Shown here piece by piece: positions 28,356 to 45,177 of a stretch of 45,302 bases of DNA. The stretch is from a virus. Where the stretch lies: positions 1 through 45,302 of IMG/VR virus record IMGVR_UViG_3300021400_000002; one strand, 5' to 3'. Both the position numbers and the translations under genes were made by a program. The notes beneath the pieces were generated by a model. It saw only the letters and a program-made list of their open reading frames with translations, had not been told where the DNA came from and did not search any database. Every line of letters begins with the position of its first letter. Positions within the stretch are counted from its first letter, which is position 1.

Positions 28356-29771
28356 TCATTCATCGTCTGTATCCTCCTGCATCTGTGCCATTGCCATAGC
28401 TTCAGCTATCTTTGCCTGCTGTATATTTTCAAACTCATCTATCTTGCCCTGTATCTCGCAGAGTGTCTTTGTGGTTGCTTCATCTCCTAAGAATGGAGCT
28501 GCCGCTATAGCGTTGTTTGTAGCCTCTGTCGGATTAATAGATACATCGCGCTGATAATGCCATGTTTGATTTTCAAAGCCTAATAGCTCAAACAAGTCTG
28601 TCAAGAACTGATCTACATAGCTTTCCATCTTGTCACACTTGCGATTCAGTGAGGAATACGCCGATTTGATTTCTGTTGCTGTCATGTTCGCCGTTGTGTG
28701 CGATACGTCAACGCCCTCCATATCCTCAAAGAGCTGTTTTCTCAGCCTGTCAAGCAGTTGTCCTCTTGCATCATGCTGTATCTGTATTTCATGTGGCGTT
28801 GCTGTTGCTTCTCCGCTTGTATGCAGTACGTGAGTTTTAATGAGGTCTGCAAGGAAATTGACATCATCTTGCTGTGACATACCGTCAGCATTGTTTATGA
28901 TCCAATACAATAAATTCCAATCAACCTGATTTGCAAAGCCTGACAGCGCCATGTTATAGGCTGTTATCGTTGCTTCATTGCCTATCAGTGAGGATTGATT
29001 GTTGATATAGCCCATACGCACAATAGGCAGAGAGCCGTAATTTTTGCCCTCAGCCGCATAAACGCCCTGCACATCATTTGACAGATTATCAACGATATAT
29101 GCGCGCTTTTCCTGTGATACATACAGCGATACTCTTTCACTGCCATCTTCACCGATTTCTTTGTATTCGGTGTACTCTGTGTAGCCGTCAACCTCATAGA
29201 GCGTTACCATGAGCGGTTTATCGGGTGCTAATCTCCAGTACTTAATGCCCGCCATTACAGCGCCTGAGCGCTCATCTTTCAGCGGTATAAAGTAAGGCTC
29301 ATTGCCATCTATCTGACAGGCTATACACATCGGCACAATGCCATCAGTTTCAACAAGGGCATAACTTTCACCGTCATTTGCCGCATATCGTACAAGCTTT
29401 TTGATATCGTGGTCAAGGTTGTTCGATAAACGCTCTTTTACTGCTTCATCGTCAAAGCTGATACCATTACCAAGCAGATATTCAACAGCTTGATCTATCA
29501 GTACAGCGTAAAAGTTACACATGATCTTATGATTTGGGCTTACCTCATCAACGTGCGGTCTGCCTTGGATGTCATACACTATGTTCTGATATGCCTCTAT
29601 GTTCGGATCATGATGTCTATAAAACAATCCTGCTTTGTGTCCCTCGCGAAATACAACGCTGTTTTCATGGTCACTTATGCAGGCATAAATAAAAGAGATA
29701 CGGTTTGTTTCATTCTCACCGCATCTCTGTAAATCCTGATATGTTTTTATTGGTCTCGCCTCCCTAGCCAT
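28356..29771 (-). CDS. Portal protein (SPP1 gp6-like)
   Basis: 471 aa, overlaps the terL stop, acidic C-terminus. Confidence 0.85.
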   Translation of the reverse strand: MAREARPIKTYQDLQRCGENETNRISFIYACISDHENSVVFREGHKAGLFYRHHDPNIEAYQNIVYDIQGRPHVDEVSPNHKIMCNFYAVLIDQAVEYLLGNGISFDDEAVKERLSNNLDHDIKKLVRYAANDGESYALVETDGIVPMCIACQIDGNEPYFIPLKDERSGAVMAGIKYWRLAPDKPLMVTLYEVDGYTEYTEYKEIGEDGSERVSLYVSQEKRAYIVDNLSNDVQGVYAAEGKNYGSLPIVRMGYINNQSSLIGNEATITAYNMALSGFANQVDWNLLYWIINNADGMSQQDDVNFLADLIKTHVLHTSGEATATPHEIQIQHDARGQLLDRLRKQLFEDMEGVDVSHTTANMTATEIKSAYSSLNRKCDKMESYVDQFLTDLFELLGFENQTWHYQRDVSINPTEATNNAIAAAPFLGDEATTKTLCEIQGKIDEFENIQQAKIAEAMAMAQMQEDTDDE

Positions 29772-30987
29772 ATCTGCCGAAGCCGCGTGTTGGCTTGTTA
29801 TCTAATCGCGGCTTTAATATCGAGAATGCAAAGTACCTCAAATCGTCCATAGCGTGATCGTTCTCTTTGATAACGCTGTCAACGCTTGATTTGTCATTCC
29901 AAGAGTACAAGCCGAATTCGCGTATGATGTTTACACAGCTTCTGTGTATCTTTATATTGCCATTCTTCAGCATCGTTGAAGTGCATCGGATACCGTCAAG
30001 CACATCATTGTTAGCTTTTAACACGGCGTATCCTCGCCGCCTCAGCGTTGTAATAAAGCTTGCCGCTGATGGGTCACATACTACCTTGCTAATGTTAAAG
30101 CCCTCTGCAAGCTGATCTATATCATCTGCGTATTCTTCATCGGTTTTAAGCACCTGTTCACTTCTGCCCGAATAGTAATACTCTTTGATTCTTACCGCCT
30201 TATTGCCTGTTACACTCCAAAGCCCGGCACTGAATGCATTCAATGTACCATAGTCTATTGATATAAAGTATTCAGCGCCTTTTGGCTGTTCATCGGTTAT
30301 ATTATCTTCATCGAATTGATATACAAGCCCCTCTGCAAGCACCCATTCACCAAGAATGTACCGCTGATAGAATATCCCTGTATACCATGATTTGTATTCA
30401 GCAATTTTATCTTCACTCAATGACGGATTATCTTCCAGCAGGAAATGCAAATGTAAAGCGTTATGCGCTTCTGGCTGCATTATCCATTCATTGTAAAACC
30501 AATGTGACGGGCTTTCGGGGTTGCAGTTGAACCATAGCCGTGAACCTGTCACAGAACATCGAGAAATAGCCTGTAATACAAAATTCTGAGGCATAAGGGC
30601 TACTTCATCAAGCAGAATTCCCGCCAATGTACGACCTTGTATAAGCTGATATGAGCTTTCATCTTTTCCGCCGAATATTTCAAACACGTTTCGCTTGTTT
30701 CCGCAAGTGATCGTCATTGTTTTATCTGAGGTATTCCAGCGGATATCATATCTTTTTTTATCATACCTAACTGAAAGATACGGTTCAATGATGTTCTTTC
30801 TCGCTGAGTTAACGGTCTTACCACAGATACCAAACCGCTGACCGTTGAAGTTTTCCATAGCCCAGCGAACAAATGACATTATCATGAACATCGTTTTGCC
30901 TGAACGGATAGCGCCGTCAGCTATAATGCAAGTATATGAGGTATAAGGAAATGCTAATATTGCTTTCTGCTTATCACTTATCGGCAT
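29764..30987 (-). CDS. terL: Terminase large subunit (PBSX/Terminase_3-like)
   Basis: Walker A ADGAIRSGKT. ATG 30987 after GGTGAGGA, inside the end of terS. C-terminal nuclease-like DHAMDDLRY. Confidence 0.9.
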   Translation of the reverse strand: MPISDKQKAILAFPYTSYTCIIADGAIRSGKTMFMIMSFVRWAMENFNGQRFGICGKTVNSARKNIIEPYLSVRYDKKRYDIRWNTSDKTMTITCGNKRNVFEIFGGKDESSYQLIQGRTLAGILLDEVALMPQNFVLQAISRCSVTGSRLWFNCNPESPSHWFYNEWIMQPEAHNALHLHFLLEDNPSLSEDKIAEYKSWYTGIFYQRYILGEWVLAEGLVYQFDEDNITDEQPKGAEYFISIDYGTLNAFSAGLWSVTGNKAVRIKEYYYSGRSEQVLKTDEEYADDIDQLAEGFNISKVVCDPSAASFITTLRRRGYAVLKANNDVLDGIRCTSTMLKNGNIKIHRSCVNIIREFGLYSWNDKSSVDSVIKENDHAMDDLRYFAFSILKPRLDNKPTRGFGRYG

Positions 30988-31492
30988 TATCCTCACCCTT
31001 TTCAAGTGTCCCTGCAAACTCTTTCAGTGATTGAGTGAGAGGGTCATCTTCAACCTCATTGCCTATATCATTAATTTCGGGCATATCACCAACAAGCGCC
31101 TTGTAAGATTGTGCAAGGTCGTTAAGTCGGTATTTCTTACCTGATACTATCTTAGCACCGTCCTCTGTTCGCTTTGTCTTTTCGTGATATGTTTCTGTTC
31201 CCATGTCTTCTGGTAAAGCATCGACTTCTTTTTCAATGCGCCTTAAAAGCTTCTGTTTTATGCGTAAAGCGATCGTTGCATTGTCTGCTGCAATGTTTGC
31301 TACTTTTTGTGTTGATTTTATCATGCTTTTATCATGTGCGGTTTCTCTTTGCTTAGCCCACTCTTCTCTTCTGGCACGGTCAAGCAAAGTCCCCATTGGA
31401 ACATTATGTTTCTGTGCAAGTGCCCTCTGGCTAATTCCACCGCCTATATATTCAGAACGAATAGCATTCCAATCAACCTTTTTATCAGCCAT
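30974..31492 (-). CDS. terS: Terminase small subunit
   Basis: 172 aa. N-terminal HTH IRSEYIGGGISQRALAQKHNVPMGTLLDRARREEW; directly upstream of terL. Confidence 0.85.
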   Translation of the reverse strand: MADKKVDWNAIRSEYIGGGISQRALAQKHNVPMGTLLDRARREEWAKQRETAHDKSMIKSTQKVANIAADNATIALRIKQKLLRRIEKEVDALPEDMGTETYHEKTKRTEDGAKIVSGKKYRLNDLAQSYKALVGDMPEINDIGNEVEDDPLTQSLKEFAGTLEKGEDNADK

Positions 31493-31584: not shown

Positions 31585-31615
31585 ATAAAAATAGCACCCC
31601 GCCGAAGCAGAGTGC
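31585..31615 (-). terminator. Intrinsic terminator upstream of terS
   Basis: Minus strand reads GCACUCUGC-UUCG-GCGGGGUGC (9 bp, UUCG loop) followed by UAUUUUUAU. Confidence 0.7.
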
Positions 31616-31624
31616 ATTGTGCCT

Positions 31625-32242
31625 TTAATCCCATTTAAGTTTGTTTTTAAGCCATTTCTTGCCCATATCTGTTGTTAATGTTCTGCCTTTTGATACTGAT
31701 GGGTCAAGTTGACGTACAAGTTCGTCTCCTAACTTGCTTATTGTATTTCTATCTCGCAGGAGATTTCGCTTGTCGATGACAGATGATGCGTTTTGAGTTT
31801 CGCTCAGCATCGCAGTAAATGAGTTTCTAAGCACCTTTGCAGCTTCTCTTTTGCCGCTGTCTGTCTTTTGTGCATCTGCTTTTTCTCTCGCGTTGATTGC
31901 TTGTGTTTGCGGATTAAGGAATGTATACTTAATGTCTTTATTGCCATTAAGATAGTCAGAGAGATTATTCTCTTCACGTGTTCTGTTTGCATCAAGCTTC
32001 TGATTGTATGCATTAGATGCAGATAACTCCCATGCATCAATGTTTCTGTAAACGTCTTGTTCTATGTCTCTAGCATATTGTTTCTGCTTCTCTGAACCAT
32101 CATGGTTAAGAGTCGAGACCATTTCATCAACGTTTGTCTGATTTGTTTTAATATACAGGTCATCATAAGATGGTGTTGCTCCGTTTCCTCCGCCACCAGA
32201 ACCACCTGCTCTACTTGCACCCCAATTCGGCATATTACTCAC
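31625..32242 (-). CDS. Hypothetical protein (205 aa), Gly-rich N-terminus with a polar helical body
   Basis: MSNMPNWGASRAGGSGGGGNGATPSYDD...; start overlaps the radical SAM stop (coupled). Confidence 0.7.
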   Translation of the reverse strand: MSNMPNWGASRAGGSGGGGNGATPSYDDLYIKTNQTNVDEMVSTLNHDGSEKQKQYARDIEQDVYRNIDAWELSASNAYNQKLDANRTREENNLSDYLNGNKDIKYTFLNPQTQAINAREKADAQKTDSGKREAAKVLRNSFTAMLSETQNASSVIDKRNLLRDRNTISKLGDELVRQLDPSVSKGRTLTTDMGKKWLKNKLKWD

Positions 32243-33264
32243 TCCTTAAAGTTGTCTCTGCATTGTCTGTACCAATCAATGATGTATTGCCCTTTTTCGA
32301 TCATCAAGTCCGCAAAGGATTTGCCTTCCACTGTTTTGGCAAATATCTGGTTTTGCCCAATAGCCTTGAATGGTCTGTAAGTGTCTGTTCGCTTCATTGC
32401 TTCTGTCGGTTCAGGTGGTATATCGTTCAATGCGAGGTAATTTGTGTTGTACTTGTTACGCCTAAAGCCCTCTAAGCCGTTTGTAGCGCAGCATCCGCAT
32501 TCATCTGTCCAATGCCCCATGCCATCTTCGCAAAACACATTCTGCAAGCCGTATTTGTGGCATTCTTGTTTGATTTCGCGGTATTTTGGCACAAGCAGTT
32601 CAAGTGGAAAGAAGTAATTGCCGCCATACCGTGTCATGCCTTTGGTCTTCTTTTTGGTGATATAAGAGCCTACCATAACAGCATAAGCACCTGCCTCTGC
32701 GTATCTTGGTATCTCAGCCATTATCTGCTTGTGGCAATCCGGGAAGTAAGGCACAACGCATACTACGATCCTCGGCACTTTGTCCGAGAGAAACGTTATA
32801 GCCTTCAGGCGTTCTTCATAGCTTGGTGCGCCTTTTTCCAACTTGTCATACTTACTGCAAGCCATTGATACTTGCAGATTGACGTTGCATTGCTTTATCA
32901 ATGTCAAATACGGTTCTTCCGTCAGCATCACTGGATTTTTTGTCCGAATGATAAACGGATACTTGCTTTCTGCAAATACCTTTAAGCACTCCAGAGATAT
33001 CTTGTATTCACGCTCAGCCACTTGAAAAGGGTCTGTATTGCCGCCCATTTTAAGCGGTATATCCCAATCGCACCAGCGTGTATCACAGCCTCTTCTACCC
33101 TCTGTGAAGTGTTTAAGCTGTGTTACCGATGATAAAGGCTCAACAGTGTCTATCGTGTGCTTCTGCTTTACAAAGCAGTATAAGCAGTTATGCGAACAGC
33201 CTCGATATGTGTCAAGATTGATAGGATAATCGCAGGTTAGGCATTGTAATCCGCAGGAGATCAT
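32239..33264 (-). CDS. Radical SAM enzyme, SPL/SplB-like (COG1533-type)
   Basis: INLDTYRGCSHNCLYCFV (CxxxCxxC cluster in the PYRGC.H.C.YC context) and later GGNTDPFQ..E; 341 aa; extra C-terminal Cys cluster DECGCC. Confidence 0.8.
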   Translation of the reverse strand: MISCGLQCLTCDYPINLDTYRGCSHNCLYCFVKQKHTIDTVEPLSSVTQLKHFTEGRRGCDTRWCDWDIPLKMGGNTDPFQVAEREYKISLECLKVFAESKYPFIIRTKNPVMLTEEPYLTLIKQCNVNLQVSMACSKYDKLEKGAPSYEERLKAITFLSDKVPRIVVCVVPYFPDCHKQIMAEIPRYAEAGAYAVMVGSYITKKKTKGMTRYGGNYFFPLELLVPKYREIKQECHKYGLQNVFCEDGMGHWTDECGCCATNGLEGFRRNKYNTNYLALNDIPPEPTEAMKRTDTYRPFKAIGQNQIFAKTVEGKSFADLMIEKGQYIIDWYRQCRDNFKE

Positions 33265-33815
33265 GTGCCATCATCCTCCGCCTCCTTGATTATCCTCTCA
33301 ATAACATCATTCTGATGCTTACTGAGATAGCTTATTATTGCTTTTTTCTTATCTATCGGGAATGTAAACGTCTTGTTAAAGAAGTCCCTGTCATCATCGT
33401 TCTTGTCATATCCGCCGAAATCCTGTATATCATCAACAGAGAACATATCGGGGATATCGATGTCAAAATCGTCCATGTCTATATCTTCGATTTTGTCTAA
33501 TTCCTCACTGAATAAGTCCCAATCCGTATCACCTTTGGCTATCTCGTTATCAATTAGCCTGTATGCCCTTATTTCATCCTCTGTGAGGTCATCGACTAAC
33601 TCACAAGGCACAGATACCATGCCTAATCTCTGCGCCGCTAAGAGCCTGCCATGTCCACATACAACCACATTGTCAGCATCGATGACAATAGGCTGTCGAA
33701 GTCCGTGTGTCAGCGTAATTGACTTAATTATCTGCTGTATCTGCTTTTCTGTATGTATTTTCGGATTGTTTTCATACGCTATCAGATCAGCTATCGGCTT
33801 TTCGACTATGTTCAT
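33261..33815 (-). CDS. ParB N-terminal (ParB/Srx-fold) domain protein
   Basis: IADLIAYENNPKIHTEKQIQQIIKSI...GLRQPIVID..NVVVCGHGRLLAAQRLG; acidic C-terminal half; 184 aa. Confidence 0.8.
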   Translation of the reverse strand: MNIVEKPIADLIAYENNPKIHTEKQIQQIIKSITLTHGLRQPIVIDADNVVVCGHGRLLAAQRLGMVSVPCELVDDLTEDEIRAYRLIDNEIAKGDTDWDLFSEELDKIEDIDMDDFDIDIPDMFSVDDIQDFGGYDKNDDDRDFFNKTFTFPIDKKKAIISYLSKHQNDVIERIIKEAEDDGT

Positions 33816-33833: not shown

Positions 33834-33866
33834 ATAAAAATCACCGCCCCGATTTTTCGGAGCGGT
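33834..33866 (-). terminator. Strong intrinsic terminator immediately upstream of the ParB gene RBS
   Basis: Minus strand reads ACCGCUCCGA-AAAA-UCGGGGCGGU (10 bp including one G-U) followed by GAUUUUUAU. Confidence 0.75.
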
Positions 33867-33914: not shown

Positions 33915-33998
33915 GGGAGAACCGAGGATTTGAACCTCTCGCTGCTAGTGCGGATAACAGCTTTGCACAGACCTGATGCTCATGGTCTTACGTTCTCC
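33915..33998 (-). ncRNA. tRNA-like element (canonical acceptor stem and T-arm, non-canonical core)
   Basis: 7-bp acceptor GGAGAAC/GTTCTCC. T-arm GAGG-TTCAAAT-CCTC. Discriminator C, no encoded CCA. 5-bp AGACC/GGTCT stem with a 10-nt loop lacking GG. No 5-bp/7-nt anticodon arm found by eye. Confidence 0.45.
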
Positions 33999-34268
33999 AT
34001 AGCCTCCGGGTACTACAACATAATGAGGATTATGTTCCGGGGGCGTTTACTATGCAAGAAAAAGAAATTTCCTAGCCCCGAAGGGCTGTACAGCTTTTGA
34101 CGAACTGCATTAAACGTCGGATTTTTTAACTATGATATATAGATTTTGGGGTGAGAATATCCGCAAACTCATTGCCGTCTTTGGTATCTGAATCCCTCAA
34201 CGGCAAAATTTCCTTGAAGGAGGTGAATGTGTACTATCTGCACTCTCTTTATCTGTTTTCCCATTATA

Positions 34269-36492: not shown

Positions 36493-36830
36493 GAATAATA
36501 CCTCCCGTCTGTACATATTCCGCTTATCTCGCAATATGCTCTATAATCGCTCTCTAACATAAGAACAGTGTCATATCGTTTGTATTTTTTACATAAGTCA
36601 CGACACATCTTCACGGGTTCTTTGCGACATATAGTGTCGTCATATCCGTGATAAGACATATCATCAAGTGTATAAAGTTCCGCATCGTCAAGGACTTCGG
36701 TGTATCCTCCGAAACAACGTTCCTCGTCATCTTTTGTGCGCTTGTATCCCCATAGCGTGCAAGGCTGCCCGAAACGCCACTTGTATTCAGTGTGCTTAAT
36801 ACTAATAGCTACATATTTTCTGTCACTCAT
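36489..36830 (-). CDS. Hypothetical protein (113 aa)
   Basis: ORF in track; ATGA-coupled. Confidence 0.65.
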   Translation of the reverse strand: MSDRKYVAISIKHTEYKWRFGQPCTLWGYKRTKDDEERCFGGYTEVLDDAELYTLDDMSYHGYDDTICRKEPVKMCRDLCKKYKRYDTVLMLESDYRAYCEISGICTDGRYYS

Positions 36831-37525
36831 TGTTTTCCCTCCATCTCATCAACATATTGTCCCCACTGCTCTGCCATAGCTTCTGCGATACCCTCAAAAG
36901 TTTTAGACCTCTGCCGTGCACGGTCTGTTGTGAACATTCCTCTGTGCTTTTCTCCGTGTTTTTTGGAATAACTTCCAGAGGGACACCATGTCGCGACAGG
37001 CTCAACAACATTTGTTGCTTGCAGCGGTGGCAGATTTTTCAGCCATAAACACGTTCTTTTAGTGTAGGGATGCCCAAACATATAAGGCTGAATTATCTGT
37101 GTGTATTTCGGCAAGCAGAATACAGATGAAGGTATAGGATTTTCGACCGCTATTTTATCACAGTTCGCCCAGAGAAAGCGCAAAAAGAAGTGTGATGCTT
37201 CAATCCCTTGCCTTAATCGTTCCTCATTTAGCGTATGAGTGCCGCCTCTATAGAGATGTCTTGCACCTGCATTGCTGATATATGTGCAAGGCGGATGCGC
37301 TATCAGTATATCCCACTTAGGCACAATGTGATACTTTCCGTCCATCGTCTGAAACGATATCCCCCCCGCATTTGAGCCGATGAGTTCTAGTGCATCACCC
37401 TGAATGTGCCACTCGGGATGTCCTCCGCTAGGCTCTTGAATATCACAGCTATACGCTTCATGTCCCCGCTTACGAAAGGCTATACATACTCTTTGACTTT
37501 CCTCACAAGCTACTAAAACTCTCAT
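36827..37525 (-). CDS. Putative DNA methyltransferase-like protein (short C5-MTase-like family with a PPC motif)
   Basis: MRVLVACEESQRVCIAFRKRGHEAYSCDI...ILIAHPPCTYISNAGARH; the family assignment is from memory only. Confidence 0.5.
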   Translation of the reverse strand: MRVLVACEESQRVCIAFRKRGHEAYSCDIQEPSGGHPEWHIQGDALELIGSNAGGISFQTMDGKYHIVPKWDILIAHPPCTYISNAGARHLYRGGTHTLNEERLRQGIEASHFFLRFLWANCDKIAVENPIPSSVFCLPKYTQIIQPYMFGHPYTKRTCLWLKNLPPLQATNVVEPVATWCPSGSYSKKHGEKHRGMFTTDRARQRSKTFEGIAEAMAEQWGQYVDEMEGKQ

Positions 37526-44776: not shown

Positions 44777-45177
44777 AGATGATTCGCTACAATCTCACGA
44801 TTTGTAGTTACTGCTTCACCGTGTATGCTTTTGCAGTTACAAGTAACATACTACTCACAAGTTCTTGTACACTCCACAGTCGTTAATTCCCGAAATAGCC
44901 TTCGGTACATATCCATATCGCCTTGTATGTGGCATAATATGGATTTCATCTAAATAGTAGACTCTCCTTTCTTAATATTTTAATTTGCTACTTGGTTTTT
45001 GTAGTCTTATACCATTACTCAAACACAACCATCAGGTTTCTACACCATAGTTAGCAGGACTTTTTCAAACTGCTCTGGTATTTCCTGTGTTTTCAGTGGT
45101 TTTAAGTTACCAACTAATACTCTGGGTTTTGAGTATCTTTGAGTATATTTACTCACATTTGATAATATTATTAGTTA

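Follow-up and report, generated by a model that had tools for sequence, protein, structure and literature searches.

Conserved linkage of a ParB/Srx-fold gene and a radical SAM gene, flanked by genes with swappable N-terminal tags, ahead of the packaging genes of gut Clostridia phages

We analyzed a 45,302-nt stretch of viral DNA (IMG/VR record IMGVR_UViG_3300021400_000002, positions 1 to 45,302; the whole stretch is referred to as the window). It belongs to a gut Clostridia phage in which two adjacent genes, one for a protein of the ParB/sulfiredoxin (Srx) fold and one for a radical S-adenosylmethionine (radical SAM, rSAM) enzyme, lie just ahead of the DNA-packaging genes and are followed by a third gene whose product begins with a glycine-rich peptide, the tag described below (Table 1). 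A preliminary description of this DNA had proposed three translationally coupled genes directly upstream of the terminase genes terS and terL. The open reading frames (ORFs) and their position agree with this, and the ParB stop codon and the rSAM start codon overlap as ATGA, with GGAGG upstream. A second overlap, at 32239/32242, was also proposed; a GTG that overlaps the rSAM stop codon is a possible start of the third ORF, but the ATG at 32233 looks the better one, with a perfect AAGGAG (32248-32243) 8 nt upstream. From this ATG the gene encodes 202 aa (MPNWG...), the form with which its protein-database entry begins.

Table 1. Features of the locus, with window coordinates
Feature	Coordinates	Strand	Details
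ParB/Srx-fold gene (gene 1)	33261..33815	-	ORF, 184 aa
Radical SAM (rSAM) gene (gene 2)	32239..33264	-	ORF, 341 aa
Third ORF (gene 3), GTG start	31625..32242	-	205 aa
Third gene, ATG start	31625..32233	-	202 aa; putative tagged hypervariable cargo protein
N-terminal peptide tag MPNWGASRAGGSGGGGNG of third gene	32180..32233	-	Swappable module
Terminase small subunit, terS	30974..31492	-	PHROG 1206 at 1.5e-10
Terminase large subunit, terL	29764..31017	-	PF03237 at 7.5e-15, PHROG 2 at 8.6e-49
Terminator-like hairpin upstream of ParB	33843..33866	-	10 bp, 7 GC, T-run
Terminator-like hairpin between tagged gene and terS	31594..31615	-	9 bp, 6 GC

We found that the ParB and rSAM genes stay together in very different phages. 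A total of 229 loci were fetched, 219 of which were analyzed for linkage of the two genes; the rSAMs were dereplicated at 90% identity, and over-extended rSAM ORFs were corrected before counting. Of the 68 informative dereplicated rSAM lineages, 63 have a same-strand ParB gene no more than 1.5 kb away, which abuts the rSAM gene in 54, and the linkage spans gut Clostridia to Planctomycetes-type bins. Specifically, 83 of the first 88 loci have a same-strand upstream ParB gene (overlapping the rSAM gene or ≤20 bp away in 71 of these), and terL lies 365–1533 bp downstream in 69 of the 88. The pair is found between terL and the portal gene, still together, in loci L006-L009, and in two loci (L008 and L099) a ParB::N6_N4-MTase (methyltransferase) fusion gene lies beside it. 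No ParB-rSAM fusion protein was present among the 150 best representatives, in which long matches reflected read-through or an unrelated C-terminal extension. This conserved linkage is strong evidence for a two-component unit and, judged from sequence, for the functional pair that the preliminary description had suggested.

The first gene encodes a protein with a ParB/Srx-superfamily fold, composed of a ParB/Srx N-domain (residues 1-92), an acidic disordered linker (~111-138; the acidic tail of the preliminary description) and a C-terminal strand and helix (149-183). It matches PHROG 620 (3.5e-38) and scores 25.6 bits against PF02195 (ParB_N), just below the gathering threshold of 26.3. Residues G54-H55-G56-R57 (GHGR, the GxxR phosphate-binding motif) are invariant in the family alignment. 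The first 159 residues match the N-terminal region of phage ParB::DNA methylase fusions (PHROG 498, 1.5e-34), and a further match is to the N terminus of PADLOC MTase_II (4.8e-19), so that the pairing of ParB-like genes with DNA methylases in this slot, which the preliminary description had mentioned for many Firmicutes phages, is borne out for this very type of ParB. The AlphaFold 2 (AF2) model is of modest confidence (predicted local distance difference test [pLDDT] score of 67) and shows, beyond the N-domain, the disordered acidic linker and one helix. Foldseek aligned only the N-domain (~100–117 columns) to ParB/Noc structures, with the CTP-binding domains of Noc/ParB as the best matches (E 3e-6, 24–27% identity), followed by Srx and free-serine kinases (SerK). 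The protein probably binds nucleoside triphosphates (NTPs). We rejected its assignment as a bona fide partition ParB/Noc, given the lack of a helix-turn-helix (HTH) domain and a TIGR00180 score of 26.6 against a cut-off of 58.45; no ParA gene was found in the neighborhood of the window ParB gene.

The 120 ParB homologues listed are standalone proteins of 105–225 aa with PF02195 alone, save P0240 (also PF14386), and isoelectric points (pI) across the family range from 4.1 to 5.2. The C-terminal 'FTFP...' strand and helix recurs in the rSAM-linked partners examined, as a common 'hTFxF(P)...helix' module that extends from Clostridia as far as Planctomycetes bins. It is missing from a close N-domain homologue (L229 5001-7101; 68% identical over the N-domain) that occupies the same pre-terS slot in a locus free of both rSAM and tagged genes. 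There, the ParB gene is followed by genes for an ABC-type ATPase and a GNAT-like protein where the rSAM gene would sit, an arrangement that may be another ParB-partner combination.

The second gene encodes a true radical SAM enzyme with a distinct C-terminal domain of its own. Queried with its confident AF2 model (pLDDT 92.6), Foldseek returned many solved rSAM enzymes at a probability of 1.0, the best PDB matches being SkfB (1e-6), SuiB, PylB, DesII, MiaB and the pyruvate formate-lyase activating enzyme (PFL-AE), with template modeling (TM) scores of ≤0.49, i.e., at the level of a generic barrel. The PF04055 score (24.7 bits) is below the gathering threshold of 29.5, which members of the family pass (34.6 and 39.4). 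In an alignment of 25 sequences down to 42% identity, 45 residues are invariant, namely those of the CX3CX2C cluster motif (C23/C27/C30) and 42 other columns, among which falls GGNTDPFQ. The nearest named families of the core in NCBIfam are Rv2578c (1.3e-24), PA0069 (1.3e-18) and 'mobile pair B' (1.1e-8), in keeping with the SplB-like/COG1533 signature reported in the preliminary description. All three matches are limited to residues 16-209, and membership in the first two families was rejected (NF038135, 86.8 bits versus 430; NF033668, 67.2 versus 360), the enzyme being related to them without belonging to either.

The same description had called the enzyme SPL-type, after spore photoproduct lyase (SPL), and this did not hold. 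An NCBIfam hmmscan at E ≤ 1 returned Rv2578c, PA0069, mobile-pair-B and unrelated families and no SPL model, and neither the rSAM sequence nor the family profile found SPL or other solved relatives among PDB sequences at E ≤ 10. Because the family matches cover the core only and SPL is matched by neither sequence nor fold, 'SplB-like core' is a fair description and 'SPL-type enzyme' is not. The likeness to SPL and the SplB-like branch consists of CX3CX2C, a GxxxDPFQ-type motif and barrel-core homology; the present family stands apart by a unique C-terminal third and four extra invariant cysteines. These are an N-terminal pair (C4 and C11) and a dyad (C258-C259); the extra C-terminal cysteine cluster noticed earlier is therefore invariant only at the dyad, and the N-terminal pair is to be added to it. 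The four cysteines are probable ligands of an additional Fe-S or metal site. The C-terminal domain (~245-341) is family-specific and acidic (pI 5.4), and the core is basic (pI 8.7).

Relatives of the enzyme are numerous. We counted 249 matches, nearly all unnamed, in a 90%-clustered database; a search of 1.84 billion representatives yielded 253 clusters at 50% identity (E ≤ 1e-30), and there were 300 relatives in IMG/VR and 463 in JGI metagenome contigs; the rSAM-bearing hosts among GTDB genomes are mostly gut Clostridia. A structural search of BFVD returned generic phage rSAM proteins only, and PADLOC had no defense-system model for either the rSAM or the third gene. Two homologues of 413–426 aa (P0250 and P0279) have a real C-terminal extension of ~90 aa with ..G[TH]HY[FL][GS].SQ....P[ST]..E...., for which Pfam gave no match. 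A more distant 278-aa rSAM (24% identity, PHROG 13321 type) is encoded in the early region of the human-gut phage MT835521.1 (L224, 4258-5780), directly after a cytosine-5 methylase-like ORF and with no ParB gene.

The third gene had been described as one of the first cistrons of the packaging operon. That it represents a conserved family was rejected by three routes: jackhmmer, which found it in none of the 89 related loci, pairwise alignment of the genes downstream, and a search of 5.8 billion proteins, which found only six homologues of the protein body. Pfam, PHROG, NCBIfam and PADLOC assigned no family to it. Its glycine-rich N terminus is real and is something that the preliminary description had missed, a swappable peptide tag. 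The tag ends right before a basic body (pI 8.9) that starts ATPSYDDLY, and this same body (A[TI]PSYDDLYIKT...) carries MPNWGASRAGGSGGGGNG in the window and MGSHGGSRAGSSGGGGG, MCTSRGNGGGRGGGGNR and MGNCLLAVSNGGSRAGGG in other phages. By this comparison, the third gene is lineage-specific, hypervariable, tagged putative cargo and not a fixed subunit.

Similar tags occur beside the rSAM gene throughout one rSAM clade. They are phage-specific peptides of ~8–18 residues (MGxC..., MCxNMG..., MPNWG...GGSGGGG) that stand on one to six unrelated bodies flanking the rSAM. The largest set is that of L008, with six tagged genes abutting the module (five start with MGACRG[ST]GG and one with MGTCRSSGS), followed by L011 with five (MGTCNS[NS][GS]K) and L012 with three (MC[GS]NMG[SG]G); two genes each share MGSHGGSRAGGSGGGG in L220, MASY in L006 and MGDCNFTYK in L170, and the tags of L223 are MANWGSSR and MPNWGGSR. 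A regular expression for two tag types gave 59 matches in 16,412 ORFs, nearly all at residue 1 of rSAM-flanking genes, and an unbiased search for N-terminal 9-mers repeated within loci recovered almost only these tags. No single residue is invariant across phages, and the window tag has no cysteine. Paralogous tags keep their residues through synonymous and six-fold codon switches (Ser AGT to or from TCA, Arg CGG to or from AGA), and the DNA upstream of them differs and is not conserved; selection thus acts on the peptide and not on a recombination sequence.

Faint signals of metallopeptidase and nuclease-toxin folds were seen in the tagged bodies, one of which is followed by a small immunity-like ORF. 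Specifically, a tagged 231-aa protein (..MGCSSSSRL..; L222 2-948, L221 401-1092) with a toxin-like C-terminal part is encoded directly upstream of the rSAM gene, and an 83-aa ORF overlaps its stop codon, a layout that looks like a toxin-immunity pair. A motif, G[ST]EKQ[VI]xWA[NQ][DS]I, is common to tagged bodies beside different rSAM lineages (L015 4138-4707; L079 6993-7475 and 7766-8206; L177 5068-5535), indicating that some cargo bodies recur across phages.

In a neighbor-joining tree of the rSAM, all tag-bearing phages fall in one clade, whose sole non-tagged member is L099. Inside it, a sister lineage (L076/L079/L089/L177) carries the rSAM together with a tagged gene in the tail module, with tail-chaperone-like genes on one side and the tape-measure gene on the other. 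No tags were found within ±6 kb in the other large clade, which has the 45 invariant rSAM residues in common with the tag-bearing one. In this tag-free clade, the rSAM is often followed by a 281-aa enzyme of the PALP, pyridoxal phosphate (PLP)-dependent type (87 loci, e.g., L052 7005-7850), which matches PF00291 at threshold and, as its best NCBIfam match, the D-cysteine desulfhydrase/1-aminocyclopropane-1-carboxylate (ACC) deaminase family (2e-9). A truncated MetK-like gene (7e-12) follows the rSAM in a Peptoniphilaceae prophage (L195 7027-7812).

The window itself is the genome of an ordinary temperate phage of siphovirus type. It encodes DnaD/DnaC-type loaders, a single-stranded DNA-binding protein (SSB), HNH, Gam, an exonuclease, NinB and one DNA methylase, and the portal gene comes after terL. 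No DNA-level similarity to known phages was found, and INPHARED yielded only two weak protein-level matches, one of them the MT835521 rSAM described above. The preliminary description had placed the three genes between intrinsic terminators. The two hairpins exist and are the strongest of five terminator-like sites in the region, but this count is not above chance (shuffle expectation, 3.4 ± 1.9). The GC-rich hairpin 27 nt ahead of the ParB start codon has counterparts that differ in sequence at this place in the diverged relatives L220 (4842-4866) and L010 (5370-5389); of the hairpin before terS, L220 has a weak version and L010 none.

Upstream of ParB, a 520-nt region had no riboswitch or leader RNA match in Rfam. 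This spacer contains a tRNA-like fragment (window 33915-34012, minus strand) with a 7-bp acceptor-like stem (GGAGAAC/GTTCTCC) and a canonical T-arm (GGTTCAAATCC), uncalled by ARAGORN and Rfam; it may be either a tRNA in decay or what is left of an att site. A 137-aa regulator-like ORF (34752-34339; weak PHROG 36 match) is followed by another T-run hairpin (CAGCCCTTCGGGGCT...TTTCTTTTTCTT; 34060-34095, minus strand), so that the spacer has two terminator-like elements. Elsewhere in the window, a RAGATH-18 RNA (44808-44880, minus strand) scores 72.4 bits (E 1e-12), above the Rfam gathering score, and the early region encodes a standalone DNA methyltransferase (36827-37525, minus strand; PHROG 757, 3.5e-60); any methylation signal in virion DNA needs to be told apart from a possible rSAM-dependent one.

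Among known systems, the closest to the pair are the ParB::DNA methyltransferase fusions mentioned above, which have a ParB N-domain and acidic linker of this type, occupy the same slot beside terS/terL in a late expression context and are present next to the pair in L008 and L099. They differ in that a SAM-dependent methylase is fused to ParB there, whereas a separate rSAM is encoded here, next to a ParB with a C-terminal module of its own. A ParB-fold protein also works with a DNA-modifying enzyme in IbrB/IbrA, DndB/DndC and DpdB/DpdA (PMC10853773). These systems resemble the pair in combining a ParB-superfamily accessory with an Fe-S or nucleotide-dependent enzyme that acts, or here would act, on DNA, and the linkage counts above match the obligate association of ParB with a catalytic gene that they display. 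A parallel to DndA may be seen in the PLP enzyme of sulfur type that some loci have next to the pair. The partners there are PP-loop/3′-phosphoadenosine 5′-phosphosulfate (PAPS) reductase-type enzymes or a tRNA-guanine transglycosylase (TGT), in contrast to a radical SAM enzyme here, and DndD/E-like proteins are absent. In logic, the module is thus close to the ParB::methylase fusions and the Ibr, Dnd and Dpd pairs, with a catalytic partner drawn from another superfamily.

We tentatively give first place to a late-expressed, ParB-assisted radical modification of phage DNA. The ParB-rSAM module would be transcribed with the late and packaging genes, and the pair would act on DNA of the phage itself, just ahead of packaging or while it proceeds, with the rSAM making a radical-based covalent change and the ParB-fold protein serving as a DNA-engaging or NTP-driven accessory subunit, as ParB-fold domains do for DNA methylases (in the fusions found in this slot), IbrA, DndC and DpdA. 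The reaction may be stoichiometric, SAM-consuming and, more speculatively, sulfur-inserting, a chemistry that the auxiliary cysteines, the PLP enzyme and the MetK-like gene would fit. The tagged hypervariable proteins, kept beside the rSAM, would probably be virion-delivered cargo. It is from genomic context that we infer DNA as the substrate: the near-universal ParB partner is of the methylase-fused type, the position by the packaging genes suggests late expression, the named relatives of the rSAM have DNA-repair contexts, and the invariant residues are common to tag-bearing and tag-free clades. The basic rSAM core was also counted in its favor. Regarding the repair contexts, Rv2578c has a LexA site and RecA-dependent induction and belongs to the LexA regulon (PMC3381160), and SplB-like rSAMs occur in SOS/repair neighborhoods (PMC3765255).

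Several observations weigh against DNA modification. The tail-module lineage retains the rSAM and a tagged gene with no ParB gene within 1.5 kb, nor was one found in an additional ~9 kb checked for L076 via L225, so the rSAM can persist after ParB loss. The ParB protein of the window is very acidic (pI 4.3), Foldseek and the AF2 model revealed no HTH domain in it, and a ribbon-helix-helix (RHH) identity of its C terminus was rejected (RHH_7, E = 0.045, not significant). SPL does not appear among the 50 best Foldseek PDB matches of the rSAM model; the best ones are the peptide-modifying SkfB and SuiB, if only at a generic level. Finally, no other hypermodification genes are present in the window, which lacks a pathway of this kind.

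Second place goes to a possible but rather doubtful alternative, that the rSAM is a protein maturase acting on the N-terminal tag of neighboring cargo proteins. A conserved Cys, Trp, His or Tyr at position 2–4 would be the reactive residue, possibly yielding a cross-link, a thioether or a mark for capsid or tail loading; in tag-free lineages, the enzyme might act on the ParB-fold protein, which would be a kinase-like helper or the substrate. One monophyletic clade has tagged genes beside the rSAM in virtually all its members, the ParB-less tail-module lineage included, and rSAM and tags have been co-inherited across this deep clade and relocated together. The adjacency could nevertheless come from an insertion hot spot and co-inheritance, and the tail-module case is a single lineage and hence a single event. 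Up to six tagged genes per phage adjoin the module (L008), the tag is under selection as a peptide, one body carries different tags in different phages, and L229 has a ParB gene in the slot and neither rSAM nor tags; yet most rSAM lineages are tag-free within ±6 kb and keep both ParB and the 45 invariant residues, no residue is common to all tags, and that of the window has no cysteine. On the protein side, the extra invariant cysteines resemble those of auxiliary-cluster maturases, with SkfB and SuiB as the best PDB matches, the ParB fold is one that Srx and Ser kinases have as well, and the ParB protein is acidic and HTH-free.

The maturases in question, which act on ribosomally synthesized and post-translationally modified peptides (RiPPs; SkfB, SuiB and the sactipeptide and ranthipeptide synthases), are similar in being extra-cysteine rSAMs encoded next to several genes whose products have a conserved N terminus in common and a variable remainder. 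They differ from the present enzyme in several respects: its neighbors are proteins of 60–250 aa and not short peptides, its cysteines are arranged otherwise (an N-terminal pair and a CC dyad), and the structural match (TM 0.49) is that of a generic barrel. In addition, Pfam and NCBIfam detected no SPASM, twitch or RiPP recognition element (RRE) domain in the rSAM.

A variant that we consider less probable still is that the rSAM, with ParB as an NTP-dependent helper where present, modifies tags on exchangeable effectors and so licenses their loading into or delivery by the virion, or their coupling to DNA. The tags would then follow the pattern M-small-x-Cys/Trp/His/Tyr and a Gly/Ser-rich run, and some of the effectors would be toxin-like. 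Virion-delivered cargo of this general kind is known from T4, whose internal proteins carry a capsid targeting sequence (PMC3012670, PMC9958956). In both cases, unrelated, fast-evolving small proteins encoded near head or packaging genes have one short N-terminal peptide per phage. The tag sequence, phage type and host all differ, the tight rSAM linkage is without T4 counterpart, and no prohead protease was identified in the window; the tags thus resemble T4 capsid-targeting sequences in logic only.

It is improbable, in our estimation, that the two proteins have no joint chemistry, with ParB being a packaging accessory (e.g., a nuclease or pac-site factor), and independent morons, the rSAM and tagged genes among them, having gathered at one permissive site. 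HNH proteins, which are packaging accessories of cos phages, offer an analogy for such a ParB, the related L229 has a ParB N-domain gene in the pre-terminase slot without an rSAM, and the slot holds varied cargo (methylase, ATPase and GNAT, PLP enzyme). This account is hard to reconcile with the overlap or abutment of ParB and rSAM kept in 54 of the 68 lineages across very divergent phages and hosts, with their joint move to a different position, and with the C-terminal module that rSAM-linked ParBs have in common and that the rSAM-free homologue lacks.

Least likely is SPL-type repair of UV- or dry-state thymine dimers in the DNA of phages that infect spore formers. In its favor, the core is a distant relative of the SplB-like/COG1533 branch, which published contexts tie to repair, and the hosts are mostly Clostridia. 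Against it, SPL was missed by every model, sequence and top-50 structural comparison above, and a late-operon, terminase-adjacent site is ill-suited to an enzyme whose work would fall right after entry into a new cell. To our knowledge, SPL has no counterpart of the four extra cysteines or the C-terminal domain, and we know of no obligate ParB partner for it.

Literature searches on ParB plus radical SAM in phages, on the radical SAM mobile pair and on ParB-like methylases by terminases returned nothing on a ParB-rSAM module, and the pair has no functional name in the sources searched; the association of tags with an rSAM could be categorically new. The pair is common, above all in Clostridia phages of the human gut. 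Should the rSAM act on DNA, radical chemistry would join the short list of packaging-time phage DNA modifications, with consequences for restriction evasion, for the detection of modified bases in gut viromes by sequencing and for enzyme discovery. If, instead, it acts on the tags, this would be a cargo-tagging route for virion-delivered proteins that depends on an enzyme, the first of its kind, and a short portable tag could then serve to bring foreign proteins into phage particles. Under either reading, the tag is a simple sequence handle for many unannotated candidate phage effectors and anti-defense proteins.

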